Assembly: GCA_965205605.1 (NCBI GenBank)
Contig: CBDBHE010000006.1
Coordinates: 160,001 to 224,000 of the forward strand
DNA length: 64,000 nucleotides
Source of the DNA: Spirochaetota bacterium
GTDB taxonomy: Bacteria > Spirochaetota > UBA12135 > COTS27 > CBDBHE01
Reading direction: 5' to 3'
Made by a program: the position numbers and the translations under genes. Shown here one piece after another: positions 5,593 through 33,172 of this stretch. The stretch's first letter is position 1, and every line of letters begins with the position of its first letter. The notes under the pieces were generated by a model. That model did no database searches. It was not told the DNA's origin and was given only the letters and a program-made list of their open reading frames with translations.

Positions 5593-6951
5593 TTATTCTG
5601 GAAAAATTTGATTACCTGCCTTTAGGTCAGAAACAACCGATATATCTTTTAAGGTTCTTTTTTGAGAAGGCCCATTTTCTAAATTAAGCACCCCTCTAGG
5701 GCAAACAGTAGAACACAACCCGCAACCTACGCAAGAAGATCTTACGATATTTTGTCCTCTTTGAGCGTACCATTTAACATCGATACCCATTTCACAATAA
5801 GTAGAACAATTGCCACAAGAAATACAAAGAGAACCATTAGTGGTGATTCGAAATCTTGAAAAAAACCGTTGTAAAACACCTAAAATAGCAGCTTGAGGGC
5901 ATCCAAATCGGCACCAAAGCCGTGTCCCAAAAATTGGATAAAATCCTGTCCCAACAACACCTGCAAAGACCATCCCAATCAAAGTCCCATAAACCATTCG
6001 AAATTCTTTTGATAAAGGACCAAAAATGGAGTTGGGTTTCATTAGATCAATCCATAAGAAAACGGTTGTCGTAATAATAAAAAGAAGCACGCTATAAATA
6101 CTAATTCTTTCTATTTTCCAAGAAATAAGCTTCTTAGAAGATAATTGTCTCCAAGGATCCCCAAGAGTATTGGCAAGGCCTCCACAACCACAAACCCAAG
6201 AACAATACCATCTTTTACCATAAAAATAAGTTAAAATAGGAACGGCAACAAAAGATAACGCAATCGACCAAGCGAGTAAAAAAATGCTTAATTTACCTGG
6301 ATGATTTAGCATATAATCAATATTACTTGGAAAAATGTCTTGATAACTTAAAGGCCAAAAATAATTTACGTATTTTTGAGGTTCTTTTAAAAAAACTAAA
6401 ATAGCTGGGATTAAATAAGCAAAAATAGATTGAAAAAAGATAACTGATAAGGTTCTAATAATTTGATAAGCACTGTGTCGATATTTTACGATTGCCCTAA
6501 TTCCCATCATGAAAATTAAAAAAGTATACAGAGAGCCATATAAGAAATATTGATCAGACCCCCTCCCTCTTAAAGAGTAAGAGAAAGCATCTGTCATTTT
6601 AATCAGATGTTTTAAAGTAAAAGGGAACCAATACATTAAAATATAAAACCCGGTTAAAAAAAGACACAGCATCCAAGCAAAGGCACCTCGGTGAGTTAAA
6701 AAAGATGTGGTAATGTTATCATTTTTAACCCCCGCAGGAGTTTTTAAGTAATGTTTTAAAATATAAATAAGAGCCCCTACACTTATAAAACTAAGGCTTA
6801 AACCAAAAAAAAGTTTTGGTTGATGACTGCCTCCACCAAAAGCACCAATAAAAAATAAAAAAACCCCAATAGAAAAAATAAAAAGACCACTTTTTTCTAT
6901 AAAGCCTAAAGAATAATCTTTAATAAGACTAGTTGAATCATTTGTATTCAT
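5593..6951 (-). CDS. Polytopic membrane 4Fe-4S protein (NapH/MauN/YccM-like)
   Basis: About 9 TM helices; GKRWYCSWVCGCG, RLWCRFGCP, CISCGNCSTYC, CVGCGLCSTVCP. Confidence 0.9.
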   Translation of the reverse strand: MNTNDSTSLIKDYSLGFIEKSGLFIFSIGVFLFFIGAFGGGSHQPKLFFGLSLSFISVGALIYILKHYLKTPAGVKNDNITTSFLTHRGAFAWMLCLFLTGFYILMYWFPFTLKHLIKMTDAFSYSLRGRGSDQYFLYGSLYTFLIFMMGIRAIVKYRHSAYQIIRTLSVIFFQSIFAYLIPAILVFLKEPQKYVNYFWPLSYQDIFPSNIDYMLNHPGKLSIFLLAWSIALSFVAVPILTYFYGKRWYCSWVCGCGGLANTLGDPWRQLSSKKLISWKIERISIYSVLLFIITTTVFLWIDLMKPNSIFGPLSKEFRMVYGTLIGMVFAGVVGTGFYPIFGTRLWCRFGCPQAAILGVLQRFFSRFRITTNGSLCISCGNCSTYCEMGIDVKWYAQRGQNIVRSSCVGCGLCSTVCPRGVLNLENGPSQKRTLKDISVVSDLKAGNQIFPE

Positions 6952-6980
6952 TTTTAATTAAAACTCCTTGTATTGTGTTA

Positions 6981-8348
6981 TTAATTTCTACTTTGAAAGA
7001 TAGGGAATAATCCTTTTTTTGATTTTAATTTGATTGGATTTTCTTTGTGCAGGTTATTGTAAACATTAAGAACGTTTTTTTCAAAACTTTTATAAAATTC
7101 TGGATCAAAATTAACTTGCCCTAAATGAGCTAGAACATGAGAGAGCTTTTGTTTTTCGTGAATCCATTTTTCACATATTTGGTGTCTCCCTCGAATCCCT
7201 AAAAAATTAAAACCGATAACAGTTTGATTTGACTTTAAGTAGTTGATACGAATGCATCGTTGTCCATTAGGATCTTCCCAATAAATACTGGCTTCATTTT
7301 TTGGGTTTTTGTTTAAAATCATCCCATAAGTTTGATATTCAATATTAAAAAATTTAGCTGAATTAAACCAAATACCAGGAGAATAAAGGGTTTTTTCAAG
7401 AGTAATACTTCTGGCGACACATTCCCCTTGCATTTTTCCAGTATACCACAAAGGTTCACTTGGTTTTCGATTAGGGCTTGGCTTTTTTAAAGCAGAACAG
7501 TCCCCAATCGCATACACATCCTCCATGTTTGTTTGCATATAATCATTAACAAGAATTCCTTTTTTATCAATTTCAAGATCACTATCTTTTAAAAAATCAA
7601 CATTAGCTCTCACTCCTATAGTAATTCCTAAAAAATCACAAGGGATTTCTTCACCTTTAGTGGTAATAATAGCTCTGACTTGTCCTTGTTGATTAGATAA
7701 GATTTCTTTTAATTCTGTTTCAGTTTTAAGGTGAACATGGTGTCTTTTGATTTCTCGGGTAATAAGCTTTGCTTCTTCTTCAGGTAGGGTAGAGCTAAAA
7801 TACAAATGGCTGCGAATAAGAAAAGTGACTTTGATACCTCTAGACAAAAGCATTTCTGCCATTTCTACTCCAATAAGCCCTCCTCCAACAATGACTGCTT
7901 TTTTAATATTTTTAGTATTTTTTTCCATCTGCTCAAGCGATTGATAACTATAAAGTCCTTGGATGCCTTTTGATTCTTTTCCAGGCCAATTTAAAAAAAT
8001 AGGGATTGACCCTGTCGCTAAAATTAAAATATCATAATTCATTTCTTTTTCTTTAGATTTTTTTAAATGAAGTGTTTTATTTGAAAAATTGATTTTTTCT
8101 ACGTAAGCTTTAAGTAAGTTAATTTTATTTTTTTTCCAAAACCAATCTTCATAAGGTTTTGTTTGTTCATAAGTCAAATGCCCCATATAAATGTACATTA
8201 GAGCGGTTCTTGAGAAAAAGTGATCGGTTTCGTTTGAGATAATCGTAATGGTGTGCTTAGAATATTTTCTAATATATCGGGCAGCGGTAATGCCTGAAAT
8301 CCCATTTCCTATAATAACAATGTTTTTTTTAGTATTCACTTTGATCAT
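6981..8348 (-). CDS. NAD(P)/FAD-dependent oxidoreductase (pyridine nucleotide-disulfide / rubredoxin-reductase-like)
   Basis: IIGNGISG FAD motif, ILATGS, VGGGLIGVEMAE NAD motif, VYAIGDC. Confidence 0.9.
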   Translation of the reverse strand: MIKVNTKKNIVIIGNGISGITAARYIRKYSKHTITIISNETDHFFSRTALMYIYMGHLTYEQTKPYEDWFWKKNKINLLKAYVEKINFSNKTLHLKKSKEKEMNYDILILATGSIPIFLNWPGKESKGIQGLYSYQSLEQMEKNTKNIKKAVIVGGGLIGVEMAEMLLSRGIKVTFLIRSHLYFSSTLPEEEAKLITREIKRHHVHLKTETELKEILSNQQGQVRAIITTKGEEIPCDFLGITIGVRANVDFLKDSDLEIDKKGILVNDYMQTNMEDVYAIGDCSALKKPSPNRKPSEPLWYTGKMQGECVARSITLEKTLYSPGIWFNSAKFFNIEYQTYGMILNKNPKNEASIYWEDPNGQRCIRINYLKSNQTVIGFNFLGIRGRHQICEKWIHEKQKLSHVLAHLGQVNFDPEFYKSFEKNVLNVYNNLHKENPIKLKSKKGLFPIFQSRN

Positions 8349-22795: not shown

Positions 22796-23281
22796 TTAAA
22801 AAAATTTTTGAAGCCAAGTTTTTTTAGCTTCTACTTCCCATTTTCCTAAGCGAAGTTGTTTAAGTGTACTAATGCTATTATCAAAAATAATTGTATTAGA
22901 GGAAATGATTTTTTTTCTTATCAGTAAATTAATATCAAAGCGATTGAAATGATCGATCTTATTTTTTTTGTCTTGATAAAAAATAAGACTTTTATCAAGA
23001 GCTTTTAAATGATATGTTGATTCTAAATCTTTAAAAATTCTAACACTGCTGTCTATTGAGCAACCACTGATCATTTTTTCTTCATTAACTAAAAGTGCAA
23101 ATTGATCATAAATGATTTGATAACTCCCTTTAGTTTTTGTCTCATGGCTCATCCAGTGTTGAGTAAAATCTTTTAGAGTTGTTTCAACAATTGCTTTTTC
23201 TTTTTTATTTAAAGGATCACAAAAAGCATAAACCCACAATTTGGAACTATCTTCAAAATTAGAAAAAAAAGTTTTTAGCAT
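22796..23281 (-). CDS. Conserved hypothetical protein with SGCSID motif (family often mislabelled 'ABC transporter ATPase')
   Basis: SSKLWVY, WMSH, ISGCSIDSSVR, IFDNSI, KKTW; no Walker A motif. Confidence 0.75.
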   Translation of the reverse strand: MLKTFFSNFEDSSKLWVYAFCDPLNKKEKAIVETTLKDFTQHWMSHETKTKGSYQIIYDQFALLVNEEKMISGCSIDSSVRIFKDLESTYHLKALDKSLIFYQDKKNKIDHFNRFDINLLIRKKIISSNTIIFDNSISTLKQLRLGKWEVEAKKTWLQKFF

Positions 23282-25914: not shown

Positions 25915-27015
25915 TTATTGATAAAGAGAATTATATTGCTCTATGATTTCATTCATGGCAAATCGTTTTCTAGCTGAATCATAAGCGTTTTTTGATAAAA
26001 CTTCCCATTTTTTAGGGTTGTTAATAAGGCTAAGAGCAATTTCAGTAGCTTTACTAATGTCTTTTGGCTCAAAAAGATACCCGTCTTTTCCTTCGATAAC
26101 GACTTCGCTCACTCCCCCGACTCGTGTTGAAATCACAGGGACTCCACAAGCCATTGCTTCTAAAGCAGCTAGTCCAAACGATTCGTCTTGACTGGTTGAT
26201 AAAAAGAAAGAAGCTTTTTTTAAAAAATGGGCTGGATTTACTTGAATCCCTAAAAATTTTACTTTATCTTCAATATTAAGTTTTTTACAAAGAGTAAGCA
26301 TACGATGTTCTAAAGGCCCTTCACCTACTACCCAAAGAAAACATTTTTTTGAAGTTTTTTTTTGAATTTGATCAAATATTTTAATTGTCTCAAGGGGATT
26401 TTTAACAACTCTTAAGTTGGAAGAATGAAAGAAGATAATGGGGTTTTCTAATTTTTTATTTTCTTTCATTTTATAATAATTTGGATTGACGAAATTATAA
26501 ATTGTTTGAATTTTATTTGGATTAATTTGAAAAAATTTCTCTGTTTTTTCTTTTAAATAATTACTAACAACAGTGATTTTATCGGAATTTTCGATGGCAT
26601 ATTTAGTAATGTGAATCATGGATGAATGAGACCCTACAATTGTAATGTCGGTGCCGTGTAAAGTTGTAATGCATTTAACTTTTTTTTTTGATATTTGTTT
26701 TGCTAAAATCGCTGCAATAGCATGAGGGATGGCGTAATGACTGTGAATAACATGAATGTTCATTCTTTCAACCAGCTCGGCTAATTGAGAAGCTAAAGCA
26801 AGAGTATAGGGTTGAAAATCAAAAACAGGGTATTCTTTTATAGAGATTTTGTGATAATGAATTTTTTCATTAAAATTTTCTTGATATCTAAAAGGATGTT
26901 GAAGACCAACAAAATGAACATGGTAATTTTTTTTCTCTGCCATGGCTTTACCAATTTCGTAAGCGACAATACCAGATCCACCCAATCGATGAAAATTTAA
27001 AATAGCAATATTCAT
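25915..27015 (-). CDS. bshA: N-acetyl-alpha-D-glucosaminyl L-malate synthase BshA
   Basis: GGSGIVAYEIG, HSHYAIPHA, TTLHGTDITIVG, ESFGLAALEAMACGVPV; adjacent to bshB/bshC. Confidence 0.95.
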   Translation of the reverse strand: MNIAILNFHRLGGSGIVAYEIGKAMAEKKNYHVHFVGLQHPFRYQENFNEKIHYHKISIKEYPVFDFQPYTLALASQLAELVERMNIHVIHSHYAIPHAIAAILAKQISKKKVKCITTLHGTDITIVGSHSSMIHITKYAIENSDKITVVSNYLKEKTEKFFQINPNKIQTIYNFVNPNYYKMKENKKLENPIIFFHSSNLRVVKNPLETIKIFDQIQKKTSKKCFLWVVGEGPLEHRMLTLCKKLNIEDKVKFLGIQVNPAHFLKKASFFLSTSQDESFGLAALEAMACGVPVISTRVGGVSEVVIEGKDGYLFEPKDISKATEIALSLINNPKKWEVLSKNAYDSARKRFAMNEIIEQYNSLYQ

Positions 27016-27016
27016 T

Positions 27017-27742
27017 TTATTTTTTTTCTATATGAGCTAAAGGATCTTCTATTTTTAAAGGAGCATTAAAAAAAAACCCTTCTGCATAAGGCACACCGAT
27101 TAAACTTCCAAAGTACTTTGATTTTGAAATCAAAAGTTGCCAAAAGTGTGTTGATTTAATAAAGGTTTTGCTAGGCTGCTTTTCATCTTTTTCAGTGAAG
27201 ACCTGACTTTGATAACATTTTATAGCTTCTAATTTTTTTTCCCAAACAGGAGTAATATCAATAATAAAATCAGGTCTTTGAGTTGAGAAAAATTCGTTAA
27301 ATTGAAACAAGGTTTTTGGTTTATGTGCTTTTGTGTCTTTAATGTTTATTTTTTGAAGTCCAGAGAGAAAAAAACATTCTTGGATCATTTGGCCTGTGTA
27401 ATAATGATCTGGATGCCGTATCAGAGATCCTCCAAAACTAATCAGTGCTTGGGGTTGATAAGTGCGAATAACTTTAATAATTTTTTTTCTTGATGCTTCG
27501 TTATTTCTGATATTGCCATCGGGCAAATCAAGAGTAATTCTTTTGTCCAACTGTAAAGTTTTAGTTGCGTTTTCTGTTTCTTTTTTTCTTTTTTTTTCAT
27601 CTCCCAAGGTCCCTGCTTCTCCTTTGGATAAGTCACAAATGCCAATAGTATATCCTTTTTTTTTTAACATCATTAAGGTCCCACTTACAAAAAATTCACA
27701 GTCATCTGGGTGAGAACCAATAGCAAGATAATCTATTTTCAT
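27017..27742 (-). CDS. bshB1: Bacillithiol biosynthesis deacetylase BshB1 (PIG-L family)
   Basis: SHPDDCE, DLSKGEAGTLG, RHPDH, YQSQ, YAEGF. Confidence 0.92.
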   Translation of the reverse strand: MKIDYLAIGSHPDDCEFFVSGTLMMLKKKGYTIGICDLSKGEAGTLGDEKKRKKETENATKTLQLDKRITLDLPDGNIRNNEASRKKIIKVIRTYQPQALISFGGSLIRHPDHYYTGQMIQECFFLSGLQKINIKDTKAHKPKTLFQFNEFFSTQRPDFIIDITPVWEKKLEAIKCYQSQVFTEKDEKQPSKTFIKSTHFWQLLISKSKYFGSLIGVPYAEGFFFNAPLKIEDPLAHIEKK

Positions 27743-28974
27743 TCCTTTGTTATTTCCAAAATATCAATCGTTTTTTTTTGAAAATCATAGATGTTTTCAA
27801 TTTTCTCAATAAAGTTTAGTCCATATAGGTTGAGATAATAAAATAAATTAAAAATTCTTTCTTGCGGTTTTCCATAAGGAGCTAATGAAGCAGAAATAAA
27901 TTGAAGATTTTTAATTTCTTTTTCTCTTTTTTCTTTTAATTTTTTTCTTTTTGCTCCAATAATTTCTTTTGATTTTTGAAATAACCATTTTTCTATTTCT
28001 TTTTTTTCGATATTAAGATTTTCTAATTGTGTAAAATAATGATGGTTTATTTTTTGAAATTTTTCTTTCAATTGGGATAAATTAACGTCTCCTTTAAAAA
28101 TAAAATAATCTTTTATTAAGTTGTCTTGCTCTTTGTTTAGAAAAAAATCCCAAGAAAGGCCTAATTTTTTAAGGATTTTTTTTATAGAGGGTTCTATCAA
28201 AATAGCAGACATTCGTTTTTGAATTTTTGGTAGTTTGACTTGATGAAAATGATATTGTGCTTTTAAATTTTTTAAATAAACCTCTTCACTTGGACCGGTG
28301 ATATAAGTATGAGTTTTGAAGTAAGCATCTTGGAGGACGCTTCTTGTTTTAAGGTGAGGGAGTAAGGAATGGTTTTCAATAGAGACTACTTGATTGTTTC
28401 GATCTACGAATTGGTTGTTTTTTTTAAAAAGGGTTTTTCTTTGGTCGTTAATAGAAACAAATAAATTGCATTGATTGCCTTCAGGAGTTTTATGAGCTTC
28501 TTTGATTAAAAAAGGTTTTGCAAAGTTTAGGAAAGATTTTTCTGAAGGATCAAAAAAAACAAGCGAATTATTTTTAAAAAGTTTTTTGGCTAATTTGAGG
28601 GAAGCTTTCATAAGAGTGTTTCCTTTAATATAGCAATCAAAGCAAAGAGATTTAAGAAAAGAAGTGTTTTCTGTTTGGTGGATGTCATCAAAAAAAATAT
28701 TTAAAAGCTTGATTAAATGTTCATCAATGATGACTTTTCCAATTGAAAGTCCATGAGTTTTTTTTTCCCATTTTAATTTTTTTAAAACATTTTTTTTATT
28801 AAGATAATCGATGGTGTTAATTTCATTAAAATCAGCATCATTAGATTCCATCCAATAAATAGCGGTTCCTTTTAGTTGTTTGGCTAACTCCAAAGAGCCT
28901 AAAACTTTATAAGTAGTAAAGAGAGGCCCTCCCAAGAGGCCAATTTGTTGACCGGTAACAATATTTGGTTGCAT
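27739..28974 (-). CDS. bshC: Bacillithiol biosynthesis cysteine-adding enzyme BshC (short form)
   Basis: IVTGQQIGLLGGPLFTTYK, WMESNDADFNEI, YITGPSE, PQERIFN; overlaps the bshB1 start (ATGA). Confidence 0.9.
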   Translation of the reverse strand: MQPNIVTGQQIGLLGGPLFTTYKVLGSLELAKQLKGTAIYWMESNDADFNEINTIDYLNKKNVLKKLKWEKKTHGLSIGKVIIDEHLIKLLNIFFDDIHQTENTSFLKSLCFDCYIKGNTLMKASLKLAKKLFKNNSLVFFDPSEKSFLNFAKPFLIKEAHKTPEGNQCNLFVSINDQRKTLFKKNNQFVDRNNQVVSIENHSLLPHLKTRSVLQDAYFKTHTYITGPSEEVYLKNLKAQYHFHQVKLPKIQKRMSAILIEPSIKKILKKLGLSWDFFLNKEQDNLIKDYFIFKGDVNLSQLKEKFQKINHHYFTQLENLNIEKKEIEKWLFQKSKEIIGAKRKKLKEKREKEIKNLQFISASLAPYGKPQERIFNLFYYLNLYGLNFIEKIENIYDFQKKTIDILEITKE

Positions 28975-29109: not shown

Positions 29110-29880
29110 TTAATACTTGGGGACTTGTTGATCAATTTTCTCAGACCAAGCTTGGATACCACCGGTCATTTTAAAAACATTTGTAAACCCTTGTTGATTG
29201 AAAAAACGAACGGCTTGATGACTATGTTTACCTTGATGACAATATAAAACAATCAAAGTATCTTTAGACCAATTTTTTAAAATATTTTGGAAATAGGCTT
29301 CGTTTAAAAATTCGCTTCCTTCAATAAAAGCTTTTTTTCTTTCCCATTGGGCACGAGAGTCGAGTAGTTTGATTTCTTTTTTTTTAAGTTTTTCTTTGAC
29401 TTCTTCAGGAGTCATTTCTAAGGCTTTAGAAGGATCTTTAATTTGAATAGATTCATTAATTTTTTCGCCATAAAATTTATCGTAAATACTTGTAATAAAG
29501 GTTAAAAGAGAAGCTGGATTAAATCCTTCGATTTGATGACGCTCAATCATATAAATTAATTGTTGATCTTTAAAAAAAGCAATCGAAGGGGAAGACGGTG
29601 CATAGCCTTCAAAATATTTTCTTGCTTCTTCTGTTGCTTCCATATCGACTCCGGCAAAGACAGTATAGATTTTTTGAGGCGTGAGTGGGTTTTTTAAAGA
29701 TTCGATCAAAGCTGGTCTTGCAGAGGCCGCAGAGCATCCACAAACAGAATTAACTAAGACAACATAACTTCCTTTTTCATTGGATAAGCTTTGATTGACT
29801 TGTTGGGAGCTTGTAAGCTCTTTAACCCCATTACGAGTTAATTCCTCTCGCATTGGTTGAGTGATCGTTGGATTATACAT
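29110..29880 (-). CDS. Bacilliredoxin (BrxA/BrxB) fused to a C-terminal rhodanese domain
   Basis: PMREELT, NSVCGCSAASARP, TVFAGVD, PSSPS, ERHQIEG; then LLDSR, YCHQGKHS, GGIQAWSEKIDQQVPKY. Confidence 0.93.
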   Translation of the reverse strand: MYNPTITQPMREELTRNGVKELTSSQQVNQSLSNEKGSYVVLVNSVCGCSAASARPALIESLKNPLTPQKIYTVFAGVDMEATEEARKYFEGYAPSSPSIAFFKDQQLIYMIERHQIEGFNPASLLTFITSIYDKFYGEKINESIQIKDPSKALEMTPEEVKEKLKKKEIKLLDSRAQWERKKAFIEGSEFLNEAYFQNILKNWSKDTLIVLYCHQGKHSHQAVRFFNQQGFTNVFKMTGGIQAWSEKIDQQVPKY

Positions 29881-30011
29881 GTATTATTATAAGATAAATT
29901 TACTTTTTTTAAAAATTTATTGAAATTAACAAGTTATTTTCTATTTTAAAATCAATAATTGTGGGTTTTTTATGAAAATAAGTTTAAACTATATCTAGAG
30001 GTTTTTCTTAA

Positions 30012-31892
30012 ATGTTTTTTTTTCCCTTTCAAAAGAAATTTTTAAAGATTATTTTTATTTTTACTCTTATTCCTTTGCTTTATGCGATTCCTAAAGAAAG
30101 CAAAAATATTGATAAACTCATTAAAAAAAATCTTTTAAAAAAAGGAATGACTCTATCTCCTTTAGCAACAGATACCACTTTCCTAAAGCGTGTTTATCTA
30201 GTTGTTGCAGGGCGCATTCCTCACTATAAAGAAGCAAAACGTTTTCTTAATTCTACAGATAATTTAAAAAGAGAAAAGCTTATTAAAAAGCTTCTTAAAA
30301 GTGAGGATTATGTCAATAGTTTTTATAATTTTTGGGCAGATTTATTGGCTATTAAACCAGTTGATTTTGGTGGGAAAATGGGGGATTATAGAAAAAATTT
30401 TTTTGATCAATGGATGAAAAAAATGATACGAGAAGATCAGTCTTATCGAAAAATAGTTGAAAAAATCATTTCTGCTGAAGGGGATATTTTTAATAACCCA
30501 CAAACTTATTACTTCATTCAAGATGATAGAAAAAATATGCTTTTGGAAAAAACGGGCATGATGGCTCAATCTTTTCTTGGTACTCGTATCGGTTGTGCCC
30601 AATGCCATGATCATAAAAGTGATAAATGGACACAAGAGCAATTTTATCAAAACGCTGCTTTTTTTTCTGGGCTTACTTTTAAAAATTATAATACTAGACA
30701 AGTTAGAACTGTAAGAAGAAATTTAGGAAAAATCGAGAAATCTATTTCTAAAAAAGAAAGAAAGAAAATTAGAAGATTTTTAAGAACCCTAGAAGGAAAT
30801 TACCTTATTAAAGAAAACAAAAAAAATAATCTTAAATACCCAGATAATTATATTTATGATAAAGGAAAACAAGGAAAGGTTGTTTCGCATAAAGTATTAT
30901 TTGGTCGTTTGAGAGAAAACCCAGAAGAAACAAAAAGAGAAAATTATGCTGCTTGGCTGACGTCCGCTTATAATAGGCGTTTTACTAAAACCATTGTTAA
31001 TCGCTTGTGGAGAGAAGTGATGGGACAGGGATTTTTTGAACCCGTCGATGATCTCAAGGATAACAATCTTGTTTTTAATCGACCTTTATTTGATTATTTA
31101 GAAAGATTAATGAGAAGAAAAAATTATAAAATTAAATCTTTCTTGTCTATTTTACTCAATTCAAAAGCCTTTCAAATGGATTCTAAGATTTTTGATAAAG
31201 AAGATTATCAAGGAGAAGGGTATGTTTTTAGAAGAATGACTCCGTATCAAATTTGGGATTCTCTTGAGTTAATAAGATTAGGAAAATCTGTTTTTAATAT
31301 TCCTGTTAAAGATAAAATTGTTTCAGTTGAAGAAGATTTGAAACGAACTTCTTTTATTAGAAAAACACTTGAAACTTGGAAAGTTGATTTTAATTTAGCT
31401 TATAAAAATATAGAGCAAAATGAAGAATCGTTTCAAAAATTAACTAAAACAGCTAACGATTATTTTAATTTTTCAAAACGAAAAAAAGGAGAAAATATAC
31501 GATTTATATTTTATCCGAGTTCGTATATAAGCTATTTTCCTTATCGATTAAAACAAGGTAACTTTTTAAAAGAATTTGGTATGACAGATAGAGAAAGTGT
31601 TAGCCACTGCTCTATTGAGCCAAGTATCCCGCAATCTCTTTTTTTAATGAACAGCTTTTATGTTAATAAGTTGGTTCTTAATGCCAGGACTTTAAGGGTT
31701 TCTTTTGAAGGACTGGGTTCTTTGAAAGAGGTCCTTGATTTTGTGTATTTATCTGTTTTGAGTCGTTTTCCTTTAGATGAAGAAATGCGTATATGGCAAG
31801 AGCATTATAAAGGAAAATTTAATAAAAATAAACATTACAAGCAGATTTTATGGACGGTGATTAATAGTCGAGAGTTTATTTTTATTCAATAA
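30012..31892 (+). CDS. DUF1549/DUF1553 (PSCyt2/PSD1) planctomycete-type cytochrome-like protein
   Basis: FLKRVYL..GRIP, FWADLL, FLGTRIGCAQCHDH, VNRLW..MGQG..EPVDD, QSLFLMN, WTVINSREF. Confidence 0.9.
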   Translation: MFFFPFQKKFLKIIFIFTLIPLLYAIPKESKNIDKLIKKNLLKKGMTLSPLATDTTFLKRVYLVVAGRIPHYKEAKRFLNSTDNLKREKLIKKLLKSEDYVNSFYNFWADLLAIKPVDFGGKMGDYRKNFFDQWMKKMIREDQSYRKIVEKIISAEGDIFNNPQTYYFIQDDRKNMLLEKTGMMAQSFLGTRIGCAQCHDHKSDKWTQEQFYQNAAFFSGLTFKNYNTRQVRTVRRNLGKIEKSISKKERKKIRRFLRTLEGNYLIKENKKNNLKYPDNYIYDKGKQGKVVSHKVLFGRLRENPEETKRENYAAWLTSAYNRRFTKTIVNRLWREVMGQGFFEPVDDLKDNNLVFNRPLFDYLERLMRRKNYKIKSFLSILLNSKAFQMDSKIFDKEDYQGEGYVFRRMTPYQIWDSLELIRLGKSVFNIPVKDKIVSVEEDLKRTSFIRKTLETWKVDFNLAYKNIEQNEESFQKLTKTANDYFNFSKRKKGENIRFIFYPSSYISYFPYRLKQGNFLKEFGMTDRESVSHCSIEPSIPQSLFLMNSFYVNKLVLNARTLRVSFEGLGSLKEVLDFVYLSVLSRFPLDEEMRIWQEHYKGKFNKNKHYKQILWTVINSREFIFIQ

Positions 31893-31904
31893 CAATAACA
31901 ATAA
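31887..31904 (+). repeat. (CAATAA)x3 microsatellite spanning the stop codon and preceding the RBS
   Basis: caataacaataacaataa then gaaggag. Confidence 0.8.
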
Positions 31905-31918
31905 GAAGGAGAAAAGCG

Positions 31919-33172
31919 ATGATGTTTTTTAATGATTTAAATAGGCGTGATTTTATTAAAATAGGAGCGGAAGCTTTTTTGGGAGTTAGCTTTTTAAAAA
32001 GCCATCTTCTTGCTAACTCTTTAAATAAAAAAGCAACTGCTGATGCAGTTATTTATTTAGATATGCAAGGGGGGCAAAGCCATTTAGATACTTGGGATCC
32101 AAAACCAAAAAGTAGTAGTGAAGGAGAAATTAAAACCATTAAAACCAAAGAAGCTGGAGTGTTGCTTTCAGAAGCCCTCCCTTTAACTGCATCTATTTTT
32201 AAAGATATCACTATTATTCGTTCGATGACGTCAAAGGAAGGAAATCACCAAAGAGGCAAATATTTACAGCAAACTAATTATCTTCCCAGAAAAGGAGTCG
32301 AGCACCCTTCTTTAGCGTCGTGGTTTTTAAAGAAGAAAGGGGTTAAAAATAAAGATTTGCCGGGTTATTTTTCTTTAGGGGGGAAGGTCATAGGATCTGG
32401 GTTTTTAAATCGTTTTTATGGGCCGTATGTTATTAATCCAAAATCAGAAAAACCTTTAAAAAATATTTCACCTCATGAAGTTGATATGGAGCAGTTTTTA
32501 TCAAAATATTCTTTATTAGAAAAGCTCAATCAAATTTTTTCTAAAAGTCGTAGTGGTCTTGAAGTAAACTCTTATAATCAAGTTTATGAGATGGCTAAAA
32601 AAATGATGTCTTCGAAAGATTTAAAGGCTTTTGATCTTTCTAAAGAACCTAAAGAAGCTTTGAAAATGTATGGGGAAAGTTCTTTTGGTAAAGCTTGTTT
32701 GCTTTCTAGAAGGCTCGTGGAGCATGGGATTCGTTTCGTGCATGTCAATTCAAGAGGTTGGGACACTCATAATAACAATTTTGAGTCGGTTATGAAAAAT
32801 TGCGAGTCTTTAGATCGAGGGTATAGTGCTTTAATCAAAGACTTAAAAAGAAAAGGATTATTACAAAGAACGCTTGTTGTTATTGCGACTGAATTTGGAA
32901 GAACCCCTAAAATTAATTCACGTAAAGGGAGGGGACATCATCCAAGAGCGTATTCATCTGTTTTGGCAGGAGGAGGGATGGAAGGAGGAAGAATTTATGG
33001 ACAAACCGATAGACTTGGAAAAGAAGTGCTCAGAAATCCTGTGAGTCCTCAAGACTTGAATGCTACAATTGCGTATGCTTTAGGTTTTAATGAAGATGAT
33101 TTGCTTTTTTCTAGAACAGGTAGACCGTTATTGTTTTCTAATGGGGGGAAGCCAGTAAAAAAATTATTTTAG
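31919..33172 (+). CDS. DUF1501 family protein with Tat signal
   Basis: NRRDFIK, GGQSHLDTWDPK, CLLSRRLVEHG, GWDTH, TEFGRTP, GRGHH. Confidence 0.93.
   Translation: MMFFNDLNRRDFIKIGAEAFLGVSFLKSHLLANSLNKKATADAVIYLDMQGGQSHLDTWDPKPKSSSEGEIKTIKTKEAGVLLSEALPLTASIFKDITIIRSMTSKEGNHQRGKYLQQTNYLPRKGVEHPSLASWFLKKKGVKNKDLPGYFSLGGKVIGSGFLNRFYGPYVINPKSEKPLKNISPHEVDMEQFLSKYSLLEKLNQIFSKSRSGLEVNSYNQVYEMAKKMMSSKDLKAFDLSKEPKEALKMYGESSFGKACLLSRRLVEHGIRFVHVNSRGWDTHNNNFESVMKNCESLDRGYSALIKDLKRKGLLQRTLVVIATEFGRTPKINSRKGRGHHPRAYSSVLAGGGMEGGRIYGQTDRLGKEVLRNPVSPQDLNATIAYALGFNEDDLLFSRTGRPLLFSNGGKPVKKLF

Follow-up and report, generated by a model that had tools for sequence, protein, structure and literature searches.

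The gene brx-rhd lies in a 64,000-nucleotide (nt) stretch of DNA from a Spirochaetota bacterium (assembly GCA_965205605.1, contig CBDBHE010000006.1, positions 160,001 to 224,000; hereafter the window) and encodes a protein, Brx-Rhd, in which a bacilliredoxin of the BrxA/B type is joined to a rhodanese. The N-terminal half is a BrxA/B member by every sequence and fold criterion except single-domain architecture, and the C-terminal half has the residues of a catalytic-type single-domain rhodanese except at the end of its active-site loop, so that sulfurtransferase activity is predicted. We tentatively propose that Brx-Rhd may act as a bacillithiol-dependent persulfide or sulfane-sulfur reductase or transferase, a reading to which we give a probability of roughly 0.45, and by analogy the best reading of its place among known proteins is as a putative bacillithiol counterpart of the thioredoxin (Trx)- and glutaredoxin (Grx)-rhodanese fusions. 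The fusion is rare, is restricted to a single small order of marine spirochaete-like bacteria, and does not form a conserved multi-gene system. The gene and its parts are the following.

29110..29880, minus strand: brx-rhd, encoding the bacilliredoxin-rhodanese fusion of 256 amino acids (aa); an uninterrupted open reading frame (ORF) with an ATG start, matching PF06491, PF00581, and TIGR04191
29473..29877, minus strand: BrxA/B domain (DUF1094, thioredoxin fold), residues 2-136, placed by Pfam PF06491
29734..29742, minus strand: CGC active-site motif, Cys47-Gly48-Cys49, codons TGT GGA TGC read directly
29413..29472, minus strand: conserved interdomain linker, residues 137-156, with G138 and P150 invariant in alignment A1 (below)
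29137..29412, minus strand: single-domain rhodanese, residues 157-248, placed by Pfam PF00581 and followed by the tail ...DQQVPKY
29221..29241, minus strand: rhodanese active-site loop, C214-H-Q-G-K-H219, then S220, codons read directly

A preliminary description of this DNA had claimed that one uninterrupted ORF holds a full BrxA/B domain and a rhodanese, and the ORF, Pfam, and NCBIfam all bear this out. The first domain matches PF06491 over positions 1-135 of 136 (E 9.4e-51; 172 bits against a cut-off of 25) and the NCBIfam BrxA/BrxB family TIGR04191 over the same 1-135 of 136 (174.1 bits against a cut-off of 100), and the second matches PF00581 over positions 1-102 of 102 (E 4.6e-16; 59.6 bits against a cut-off of 22.2). 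The ORF contains NSVCGCSAASARP, YCHQGKHS, and GGIQAWSEKIDQQVPKY, in agreement with the CGC motif, the YCHQGKHS loop, and the GGIQAWS..ID..VPKY tail that had been reported, and a check of the codons by hand confirmed CGC and CHQGKHS. Cysteines occur at three positions in total, 47, 49, and 214. Among the traits of the BrxA/B family, Brx-Rhd has the full-length profile match, the CGC motif, the YphP/BrxA fold, and bacillithiol-synthesis genes in the same genome; it departs in one, the single domain of about 145 aa, being 256 aa long with an added rhodanese. That Brx proteins are otherwise single-domain, as had also been claimed, holds for 101 of the 120 listed relatives (those listed from a collection of 5.8 billion proteins), which carry PF06491 only and are mostly 140 to 150 aa long. 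Having a thioredoxin-fold oxidoreductase and a Cys-bearing rhodanese in one polypeptide, Brx-Rhd also fits the redoxin-rhodanese class, which is a class of architecture only.

Both Pfam domains are present in 19 of the 120 listed relatives (P0001-P0019; 46 to 100% identity; 247 to 307 aa). An exhaustive phmmer search against 1.84 billion representatives gave 4763 matches at E <= 0.001, and among the best 150 of these, which we inspected, ten are full two-domain proteins (P0003, P0008, P0121-P0125, P0127, P0129, and P0145) and P0126, P0128, P0150, and P0200 are fragments. The source genome of the window is 1.69 Mb in 8 contigs and 91% complete, and the GC content of the window is 30%. A scan of 41 related genomes found a frame spanning both domains in seven of the order's eight other members, the one lacking it (G002) being 82% complete; the 32 genomes that represent the remainder of the class and phylum had no such frame. 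Pfam finds both domains in 7 of 7 ORFs from the order relatives and the named record L001. Counting the window's genome, 8 of the 9 genomes of the order thus carry the fusion, and its members range from 30% to 65% GC. Across the phylum, PF06491 is present in 10 of 201 genomes; eight belong to this order and have a single match apiece, in frames 250 to 277 aa long, and two belong to family f10, with single-domain frames of 171 to 172 aa. Neither the window's genome nor any of the seven relatives has a PF06491 match other than the fusion.

The preliminary description named a sequencing error as a possible source of the fusion. That two adjacent genes were joined by such an error or by misassembly is rejected because the same continuous frame recurs in 7 other genomes and both domains occur together in the 19 listed clusters, which are independent and come from several sources; the conserved linker likewise argues against it, and we give such an artefact next to no weight. 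The closest named fusion-bearing record is "Spirochaetes bacterium COTS27" (L001; 41% identity), which is placed, in the part of PMC7444263 that treats it, among the "marine spirochetes," a proposed separate order. Homologues are named as BrxA/BrxB family in NCBI source records and as YphP/YqiW family in those of JGI, and the NCBI copy of the G004-type protein is called only "BrxA/BrxB family bacilliredoxin [Spirochaetota bacterium]," so that the rhodanese domain is invisible in the names.

To place the fused Brx domains, we used a maximum-likelihood tree (quick method; 146 columns kept) of 27 fused and 172 single-domain Brx sequences, the latter being CGC- or CAC-bearing proteins of 130 to 175 aa drawn from 274 proteins and picked by similarity to the query, with fragments and longer proteins left out. 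All 27 fused domains fell on one side of a branch with a Shimodaira-Hasegawa-like approximate likelihood ratio (SH-aLRT) of 99, and the tree is consistent with a single fusion event. Nested among the 27 fused rows is one 138-aa protein, P0194, which represents a fragment or else a case of secondary loss. Base composition around brx-rhd is uniform (26 to 35% GC), and there is therefore no sign of recent foreign DNA.

Alignments of the fused homologues (A1, n = 19; A2, n = 18; A3, n = 28) show an invariant CGC motif throughout (19/19, 18/18, and 28/28, respectively). In A1, the invariant residues include C47, G48, C49, R55, and P56 at the Brx site; D174, R176, E180, C214, H215, G217, and S220 in the rhodanese; and the tail motif G240-G241-I242..W245..D250..Y256. 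Of 27 fused homologues, 25 retain the Cys of the rhodanese, and in a core subgroup the loop is nearly fixed as CHHGxRS. The MoeZ-like tail pointed out in the preliminary description and a basic loop are present in the window protein, but as family features they hold for the core subgroup only, the VPxY tail being missing from the COTS27-type subgroup. Cys214 aligns without gaps with the catalytic Cys of GlpE (yChqgkhS against mCyhgnsS), and the loop is thus of the six-residue sulfurtransferase type; passages of PMC8533005 give the six-residue loop as the sulfurtransferase signature and a seven-residue loop as the Cdc25/Acr2 type. A reading as an arsenate reductase or Cdc25 was tried and rejected, since the loop has six residues rather than CX5R and Ser, not Arg, stands at +6; the Cdc25 fold match (Z 11.2) lies below the sulfurtransferase matches.

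An AlphaFold2 model computed on A1 has a mean predicted local distance difference test (pLDDT) score of 91.2 and a predicted template modeling (pTM) score of 0.79, and over residues 131-160, which hold the linker, the pLDDT in 10-residue blocks is 95, 92, and 90. For a two-domain protein, a pTM of 0.79 suggests a fixed domain arrangement in the model. The modeled Brx half superposes on Staphylococcus aureus BrxA-BSH (7rzb; BSH, bacillithiol) with Z 23.9 and a root mean square deviation (rmsd) of 1.0 over 135 of 138 residues in VIA-align, at 37% identity to that protein, and on YphP (3fhk) with 45% identity, rmsd 1.0, and a TM score by target of 0.85 to 0.87 in Foldseek. The rhodanese half superposes on GlpE (1gn0; Z 17.2, rmsd 2.0, 101 residues aligned in VIA-align), and further VIA-align Z scores are 13.9 for the MOCS3 rhodanese-like domain, 13.6 for TSTD1, 13.2 for Uba4, 13.0 for the persulfide reductase Npsr (3nt6), and 12.4 for a persulfide dioxygenase-rhodanese fusion. 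No known structure spanning both domains in one arrangement was found among 50 VIA-align entries or the listed Foldseek chains.

The genes for making bacillithiol lie next to brx-rhd in the window.

27739..28974, minus strand: short bshC, 411 aa, 135 nt downstream of brx-rhd; PF10079 from profile position 88, plus PF24850
27017..27742, minus strand: bshB1 deacetylase; TIGR04001, 223.3 bits against a cut-off of 182.5
25915..27015, minus strand: bshA glycosyltransferase; TIGR03999, 410.6 bits against a cut-off of 273.7

The window's genome also encodes Bdr/YpdA (384 bits, over cut-off) and BrxC/YtxJ (99.8 bits), and neither gshA nor gshB was found in this 91% complete genome. The BshC of the window matches TIGR03998 only from profile position 79 (217 bits, under the cut-off of 265.8), and since brx-rhd and bshC are separated by just 135 nt, there is no room for the missing N-terminal part. 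A short BshC is found in all nine genomes of the order, matching TIGR03998 from about position 39 to 79 in frames of 408 to 488 aa, none over cut-off; besides the window gene, the divergent short loci are L095:6526-7761 and loci L107-L116. In family f10, which belongs to the phylum as well, BshC is canonical and full-length (427 to 428 bits) and Brx is single-domain. With BrxC in 7 of the 9 genomes, this order of Spirochaetota is predicted from its genes to carry a bacillithiol toolkit of BshA, BshB1, short BshC, Brx-Rhd, BrxC, and, in some genomes, Bdr. In the part of a 2018 survey that lists them, Spirochaetes stand among the lineages without a documented or predicted low-molecular-weight thiol (PMC6282198), and the "similar length" criterion given in that part may have overlooked a short BshC.

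As to sulfur handling, three further rhodanese proteins are encoded in the window's genome, namely a 104-aa single-domain protein, TrhO, and a ThiF/MoeZ-type adenylyltransferase-rhodanese that adjoins thiH and cysD, and cysteine desulfurases were found as well. TusA was not found in this genome at its 91% completeness, which makes it likely that rhodaneses are its persulfide carriers.

Rhodaneses carry a persulfide on the loop Cys. We envisage that Cys214 would take up sulfane sulfur from a low-molecular-weight or protein persulfide or from polysulfide, less probably from thiosulfate, to form Cys214-SSH, and that the tethered CGC motif would resolve this persulfide, with Cys47 attacking and Cys49 or free bacillithiol finishing the reaction. 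H2S or bacillithiol persulfide would be released, and the Brx domain would be left oxidized, either as a Cys47-Cys49 disulfide or as Brx-SSB, to be reduced again by bacillithiol, BrxC, and the NADPH-dependent reductase Bdr, all of which this genome encodes or is predicted to make. As the only BrxA/B of the cell, the Brx domain would presumably keep its ordinary de-bacillithiolation activity. What we infer in this scheme is the identity of the donor, the transfer of sulfur within the protein, and the nature of the products. The chemistry of the single steps has precedents: accounts in PMC10950700 and PMC5790435 have BrxA/B proteins attacking protein-SSB mixed disulfides with the first Cys of the CGC motif, after which BSH recycles the protein and Bdr reduces bacillithiol disulfide (BSSB), and thioredoxins are described in a section of PMC11763069 as freeing H2S from rhodanese-type sulfurtransferases.

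We favor a relay because both catalytic signatures are intact (CGC invariant, C214 in a GlpE-type loop) and the three cysteines are exactly those that a relay needs; because the fusion has been kept across an order spanning 30% to 65% GC, with a linker that is conserved and confidently modeled; and because it is the sole BrxA/B of the genome, in which the recycling system (Bdr, BrxC, bshA, bshB1, and bshC) is present and no TusA was found. Redoxin/sulfurtransferase precedents of the same logic add to this. The reading builds on established features, namely, the architecture and its conservation, the signatures of the two active sites, the folds, and a genome that contains the recycling enzymes.

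Several observations weigh against the relay. In the divergent members P0127 and P0129, Ser replaces the rhodanese Cys, and a relay based on Cys214 therefore cannot hold for all members of the family. The loops of the COTS27-type subgroup (CDHGDL, CEDGTQ, CKDGTM, and CATGKT) depart from the core pattern, and the acidic or atypical ones among them (CDHGDL, CEDGTQ, and CKDGTM) are predicted to be poor anion binders. The loop of the window protein itself, CHQGKH, ends in His219 and not in Arg, Thr, or Ser, one of which is needed at that place for sulfur uptake from thiosulfate according to the sections of PMC8533005 on RDL2, DUF442, and TST; among the 25 homologues with a loop, the residue at its end is Arg in 20, His in 2, and Gln, Met, and Leu in 1 each. 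Thiosulfate is thus an unlikely donor here, and His219 makes a persulfide or polysulfide the more probable one. For the homologue P0011, the ESM Atlas model has a pTM of just 0.62, which means that the domain packing is not robustly predicted. No more than three of the order's nine genomes have a Bdr over cut-off, and sulfur-oxidation or sulfide-detoxification partners are absent from the fusion gene contexts that we examined. Finally, in a background of single-domain Brx from other phyla (79 named-genome loci and at least 80 metagenome loci), a rhodanese ORF occurs in the flanks of free-standing Brx at 3 of the 79 named-genome loci, always more than 5.8 kb away, and at none of 80 among the metagenome matches listed. 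As free-standing Brx is not linked to rhodaneses, the fusion is lineage-specific and gives no Rosetta-stone evidence that Brx and rhodaneses are partners in general; none of the 80 metagenome matches listed reaches the rhodanese part, all being single-domain Brx.

The Ser variants and the loop drift favor what we regard as the main rival, an ordinary housekeeping bacilliredoxin whose rhodanese is a non-relay accessory, whether docking, stabilizing, or regulatory, with a dispensable Cys. Being the sole BrxA/B of each order genome, the protein must supply the general Brx function; its CGC is invariant, yet P0127 and P0129 have Ser in place of the rhodanese Cys and the COTS27-type loops drift widely, and the genes around its own are of the housekeeping kind (those for ribonucleotide reductase and a class I Trp/Tyr-type tRNA synthetase, besides serS, ndk, and rpsF). 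We nevertheless consider this reading unlikely, since the rhodanese Cys in 25 of 27 homologues, the nearly fixed core loop CHHGxRS, and the invariant D174, R176, and E180 point to selection that acts on catalysis as well as on the fold. A protein with three cysteines and a tethered Brx would fit equally well a bacillithiol-dependent oxidant scavenger or sensor, in which peroxide or hypochlorite would oxidize a low-pKa Cys214 to the sulfenate, which would then be S-bacillithiolated and freed of bacillithiol by the fused Brx, giving either a self-recycling, thiol-peroxidase-like cycle or a redox switch. Bovine rhodanese was reportedly once described as a thioredoxin oxidase, clusters combining AhpC/TSA with rhodanese occur in the ESM Atlas (leads only), and the part of PMC3458005 on Azotobacter vinelandii RhdA ties that rhodanese to glutathione-linked antioxidant functions. 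The gene has no peroxidase-type context and no adjoining regulator, however, and the fold and loop match sulfurtransferases, with nothing specific to peroxide chemistry, so that we hold such a role to be distinctly improbable.

The position of brx-rhd directly upstream of a short bshC, in the 30% GC window and in the divergent 65% GC genome G004, brings in a further possibility, that Brx-Rhd assists the short BshC in completing bacillithiol synthesis; it might, for instance, hold the cysteine substrate or a thiol of an enzyme in a reduced or activated form. Short BshC (9 of 9 genomes) and the fusion (8 of 9) characterize the same order, whereas family f10 combines a full-length BshC with a single-domain Brx, and no BshC lies in the flanks of the 159 Brx loci from other phyla among the matches listed. 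The BshC reaction is presented in a passage of PMC5790435 as still unreconstituted, with another protein perhaps needed. We think this helper role highly improbable, given that the adjacency is missing in 6 of the 8 fusion carriers, that co-occurrence within a single lineage counts as one event, and that no known chemistry needs a rhodanese for amide ligation. A related thought, which we rate as very unlikely, is that Brx-Rhd and the truncated BshC form a co-evolved pair, with the fusion as the "additional protein" or with the pair making or recycling bacillithiol persulfide directly; if true, it would explain why both oddities mark the same order and why they adjoin in two very divergent genomes. 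The probability that is left over goes to functions of which we have not thought.

Compared with known members of the bacilliredoxin family, BrxA (YphP) and BrxB (YqiW) of Bacillus subtilis and S. aureus, the window protein is alike in having CGC within a VNSVCGCAA..ARP context and in co-occurring with bshA, bshB, bshC, BrxC, and Bdr; those proteins are single-domain and about 145 aa long, whereas Brx-Rhd adds a C-terminal rhodanese and is the sole BrxA/B in its genome. With the single-domain sulfurtransferases GlpE (Escherichia coli), TSTD1 (human), and RDL1/2 (yeast) it shares the fold, the Cys of a six-residue loop, and probably the use of a thioredoxin-fold dithiol acceptor. Sulfane sulfur goes from such proteins to thioredoxin or to low-molecular-weight thiols, and GlpE uses thioredoxin. 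Thioredoxin partners are also reported for TSTD1, STR16, and STR18 in a portion of PMC11763069. In contrast to these, the acceptor in Brx-Rhd is covalently fused and appears to be bacillithiol-specific, and the loop ends in His.

The closest architectural parallel is offered by Grx- and Trx-rhodanese fusions, which follow the same plan of an oxidoreductase plus a rhodanese at about 220 to 310 aa and are known, as far as literature searches show, from sequence alone. Their redoxin differs from that of Brx-Rhd, which is a DUF1094 domain with CGC and not CxxC or CGFS, and for which the cofactor is bacillithiol. The earlier claim that redoxin-rhodanese fusions exist in users of glutathione or thioredoxin agrees with a statement in PMC11763069, in its section on natural sulfurtransferase-GRX fusions, and with leads from the ESM Atlas, where clusters of Grx plus rhodanese, Trx plus rhodanese, and AhpC plus rhodanese scored 0.76 to 0.82 (leads only). 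In the NADH-dependent persulfide reductase Npsr of Shewanella loihica and the CoADR-RHD of Bacillus anthracis, as in Brx-Rhd, a reductase linked to a low-molecular-weight thiol is followed by a C-terminal rhodanese, and the rhodanese half of Brx-Rhd also matches the structures 3ict and 3icr of this group in Foldseek; the CoADR-RHD rhodanese is thought to handle persulfide or polysulfide, according to a passage of PMC5790435. Those proteins have a flavoprotein reductase domain of their own and use coenzyme A (CoA), whereas Brx-Rhd has no flavin domain and would need free bacillithiol and a separate Bdr. The same source describes CstB as joining a rhodanese to an enzyme whose substrates are low-molecular-weight persulfides, bacillithiol persulfide among them (PMC5790435). 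The structural match of Brx-Rhd to such persulfide dioxygenase-rhodanese fusions is to 5ve3/5ve4, but CstB is oxidative, with an Fe domain of the metallo-beta-lactamase fold, and the partner in Brx-Rhd is a reductive thiol-disulfide domain. The rhodanese domains of MoeZ, MOCS3, and Uba4 have the ...GGIxAWS..D..VPxY tail in common with Brx-Rhd, and the C-terminal part of MoeZ is the closest partial NCBIfam match (51 bits); Brx-Rhd lacks the ThiF/MoeB domain, and its genome has a ThiF-rhodanese protein elsewhere. A reading of Brx-Rhd as MoeZ was accordingly rejected, since the adenylation domain is absent and NF005902 is matched at positions 269-392 only, with 51 bits against 647.

We found no description of a Brx-rhodanese protein in open-access papers and bioRxiv, although an account in a subscription journal is possible; the question whether the architecture had already been characterized, raised in the preliminary description, was thus answered in the negative for that literature. 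In the accessible portion of a 2024 review (PMC10950700), the words "rhodanese" and "fusion" do not occur. Beyond the oxidative CstB route in staphylococci, the handling of persulfides and sulfane sulfur by bacillithiol users is presented as little known in the relevant part of PMC5790435. A minimal natural protein with three cysteines is a ready test object for the question whether Brx proteins have depersulfidase or persulfide reductase activity like that of Trx and Grx in other organisms, and Brx-Rhd marks a bacillithiol system in a spirochaete order. Its practical weight is limited, as the family has few members, these come from uncultured or host-associated organisms, and their function is a matter of inference.

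Three further features of the region are listed here.

29886..29913, minus strand: promoter-like site TTTAAA-16-TATAAT just 5' of the brx-rhd start codon; weak, 10 of 12 positions matched
30012-33172, plus strand: PSCyt2/PSD1 (DUF1549/DUF1553) and DUF1501 gene pair (Pfam), divergent from brx-rhd
22796-23281, minus strand: 161-aa ORF without a Pfam match, between a pepN-type M1 aminopeptidase gene and an FtsX/MacB ABC transporter gene

Pairs of PSCyt2/PSD1 and DUF1501 genes are best known from Planctomycetes and Verrucomicrobia. Promoter-like sites in the region number 22, against 18.1 in shuffled sequences (standard deviation 4.1), which is not above chance; a terminator-like site before bshC was not found, an absence that is likewise not above chance. 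After bshA come genes for an M1 aminopeptidase (PepN-type), the 161-aa ORF, an FtsX/MacB-type ABC transporter, gyrA, and a hexapeptide transferase. The 161-aa ORF is presumably the "SGCSID protein" that the preliminary description, together with PepN, took to be part of a system; neither gene has a shown connection to the fusion. Nor does the picture of brx-rhd heading the bsh genes hold as a system, since the fusion adjoins a short bshC in 2 of 8 carriers only, the window and G004 (L095, a 65% GC locus with a 411-aa BshC at 6526-7761), and has unrelated housekeeping neighbors in the other six. These are a TPR protein, CoaBC, and TrhO in G001; trigger factor and clpP in G003; ribonucleotide reductase in G005; ndk, an RDD protein, and rpsF in G007; and serS, a class I Trp/Tyr-type tRNA synthetase, and pgpA in both L001 and G008. 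Around single-domain Brx of other phyla, phmmer with the divergent proteins of the window, which has limited sensitivity, gave no BshC or BshA at any of 159 loci among the matches listed, and a BshB-like ORF at one.

Directly downstream of the G008 fusion (L098:8195-9016, minus strand) lies a 117-aa ORF (L098:7691-8044, minus strand) that is 98% identical (113/115) to the rhodanese part of the fusion itself and that is either a recent tandem duplication or an assembly artefact. As a near-copy of that part, it was dropped as a stand-alone rhodanese that might back a partnership of Brx and rhodanese.

Other Brx architectures occur in metagenomes, including Brx with a C-terminal TIR domain (P0234, 316 aa) and Brx preceded by N-terminal TPR repeats (P0156 and P0218). 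The 228-aa protein P0239 has an N-terminal GGCSSCG (CxxC) region and the same rhodanese subtype (CHHGVRS loop, ...VDPSVVRY tail), with 38% identity to residues 118-256 of Brx-Rhd, from which it follows that redox-Cys modules have on more than one occasion been combined with this rhodanese subtype.

Among cysteine desulfurase matches, the best (G000:C6:234487-235597, minus strand, outside the window; 435.8 bits) covers profile positions 36-371 in one frame, and positions 1-48 fall in a neighboring stretch with one in-frame TGA; a frameshift, a gene in two pieces, or a codon with altered meaning (recoding) might account for this. Also outside the window, cysM, the 104-aa rhodanese, and an OsmC-family gene form a cluster (L100:547-2202; G000 contig C6, about 96.5 to 98.2 kb) that, with cysM as the thiosulfate-using cysteine synthase B, looks like a separate thiosulfate- or oxidative-stress-linked sulfur module.

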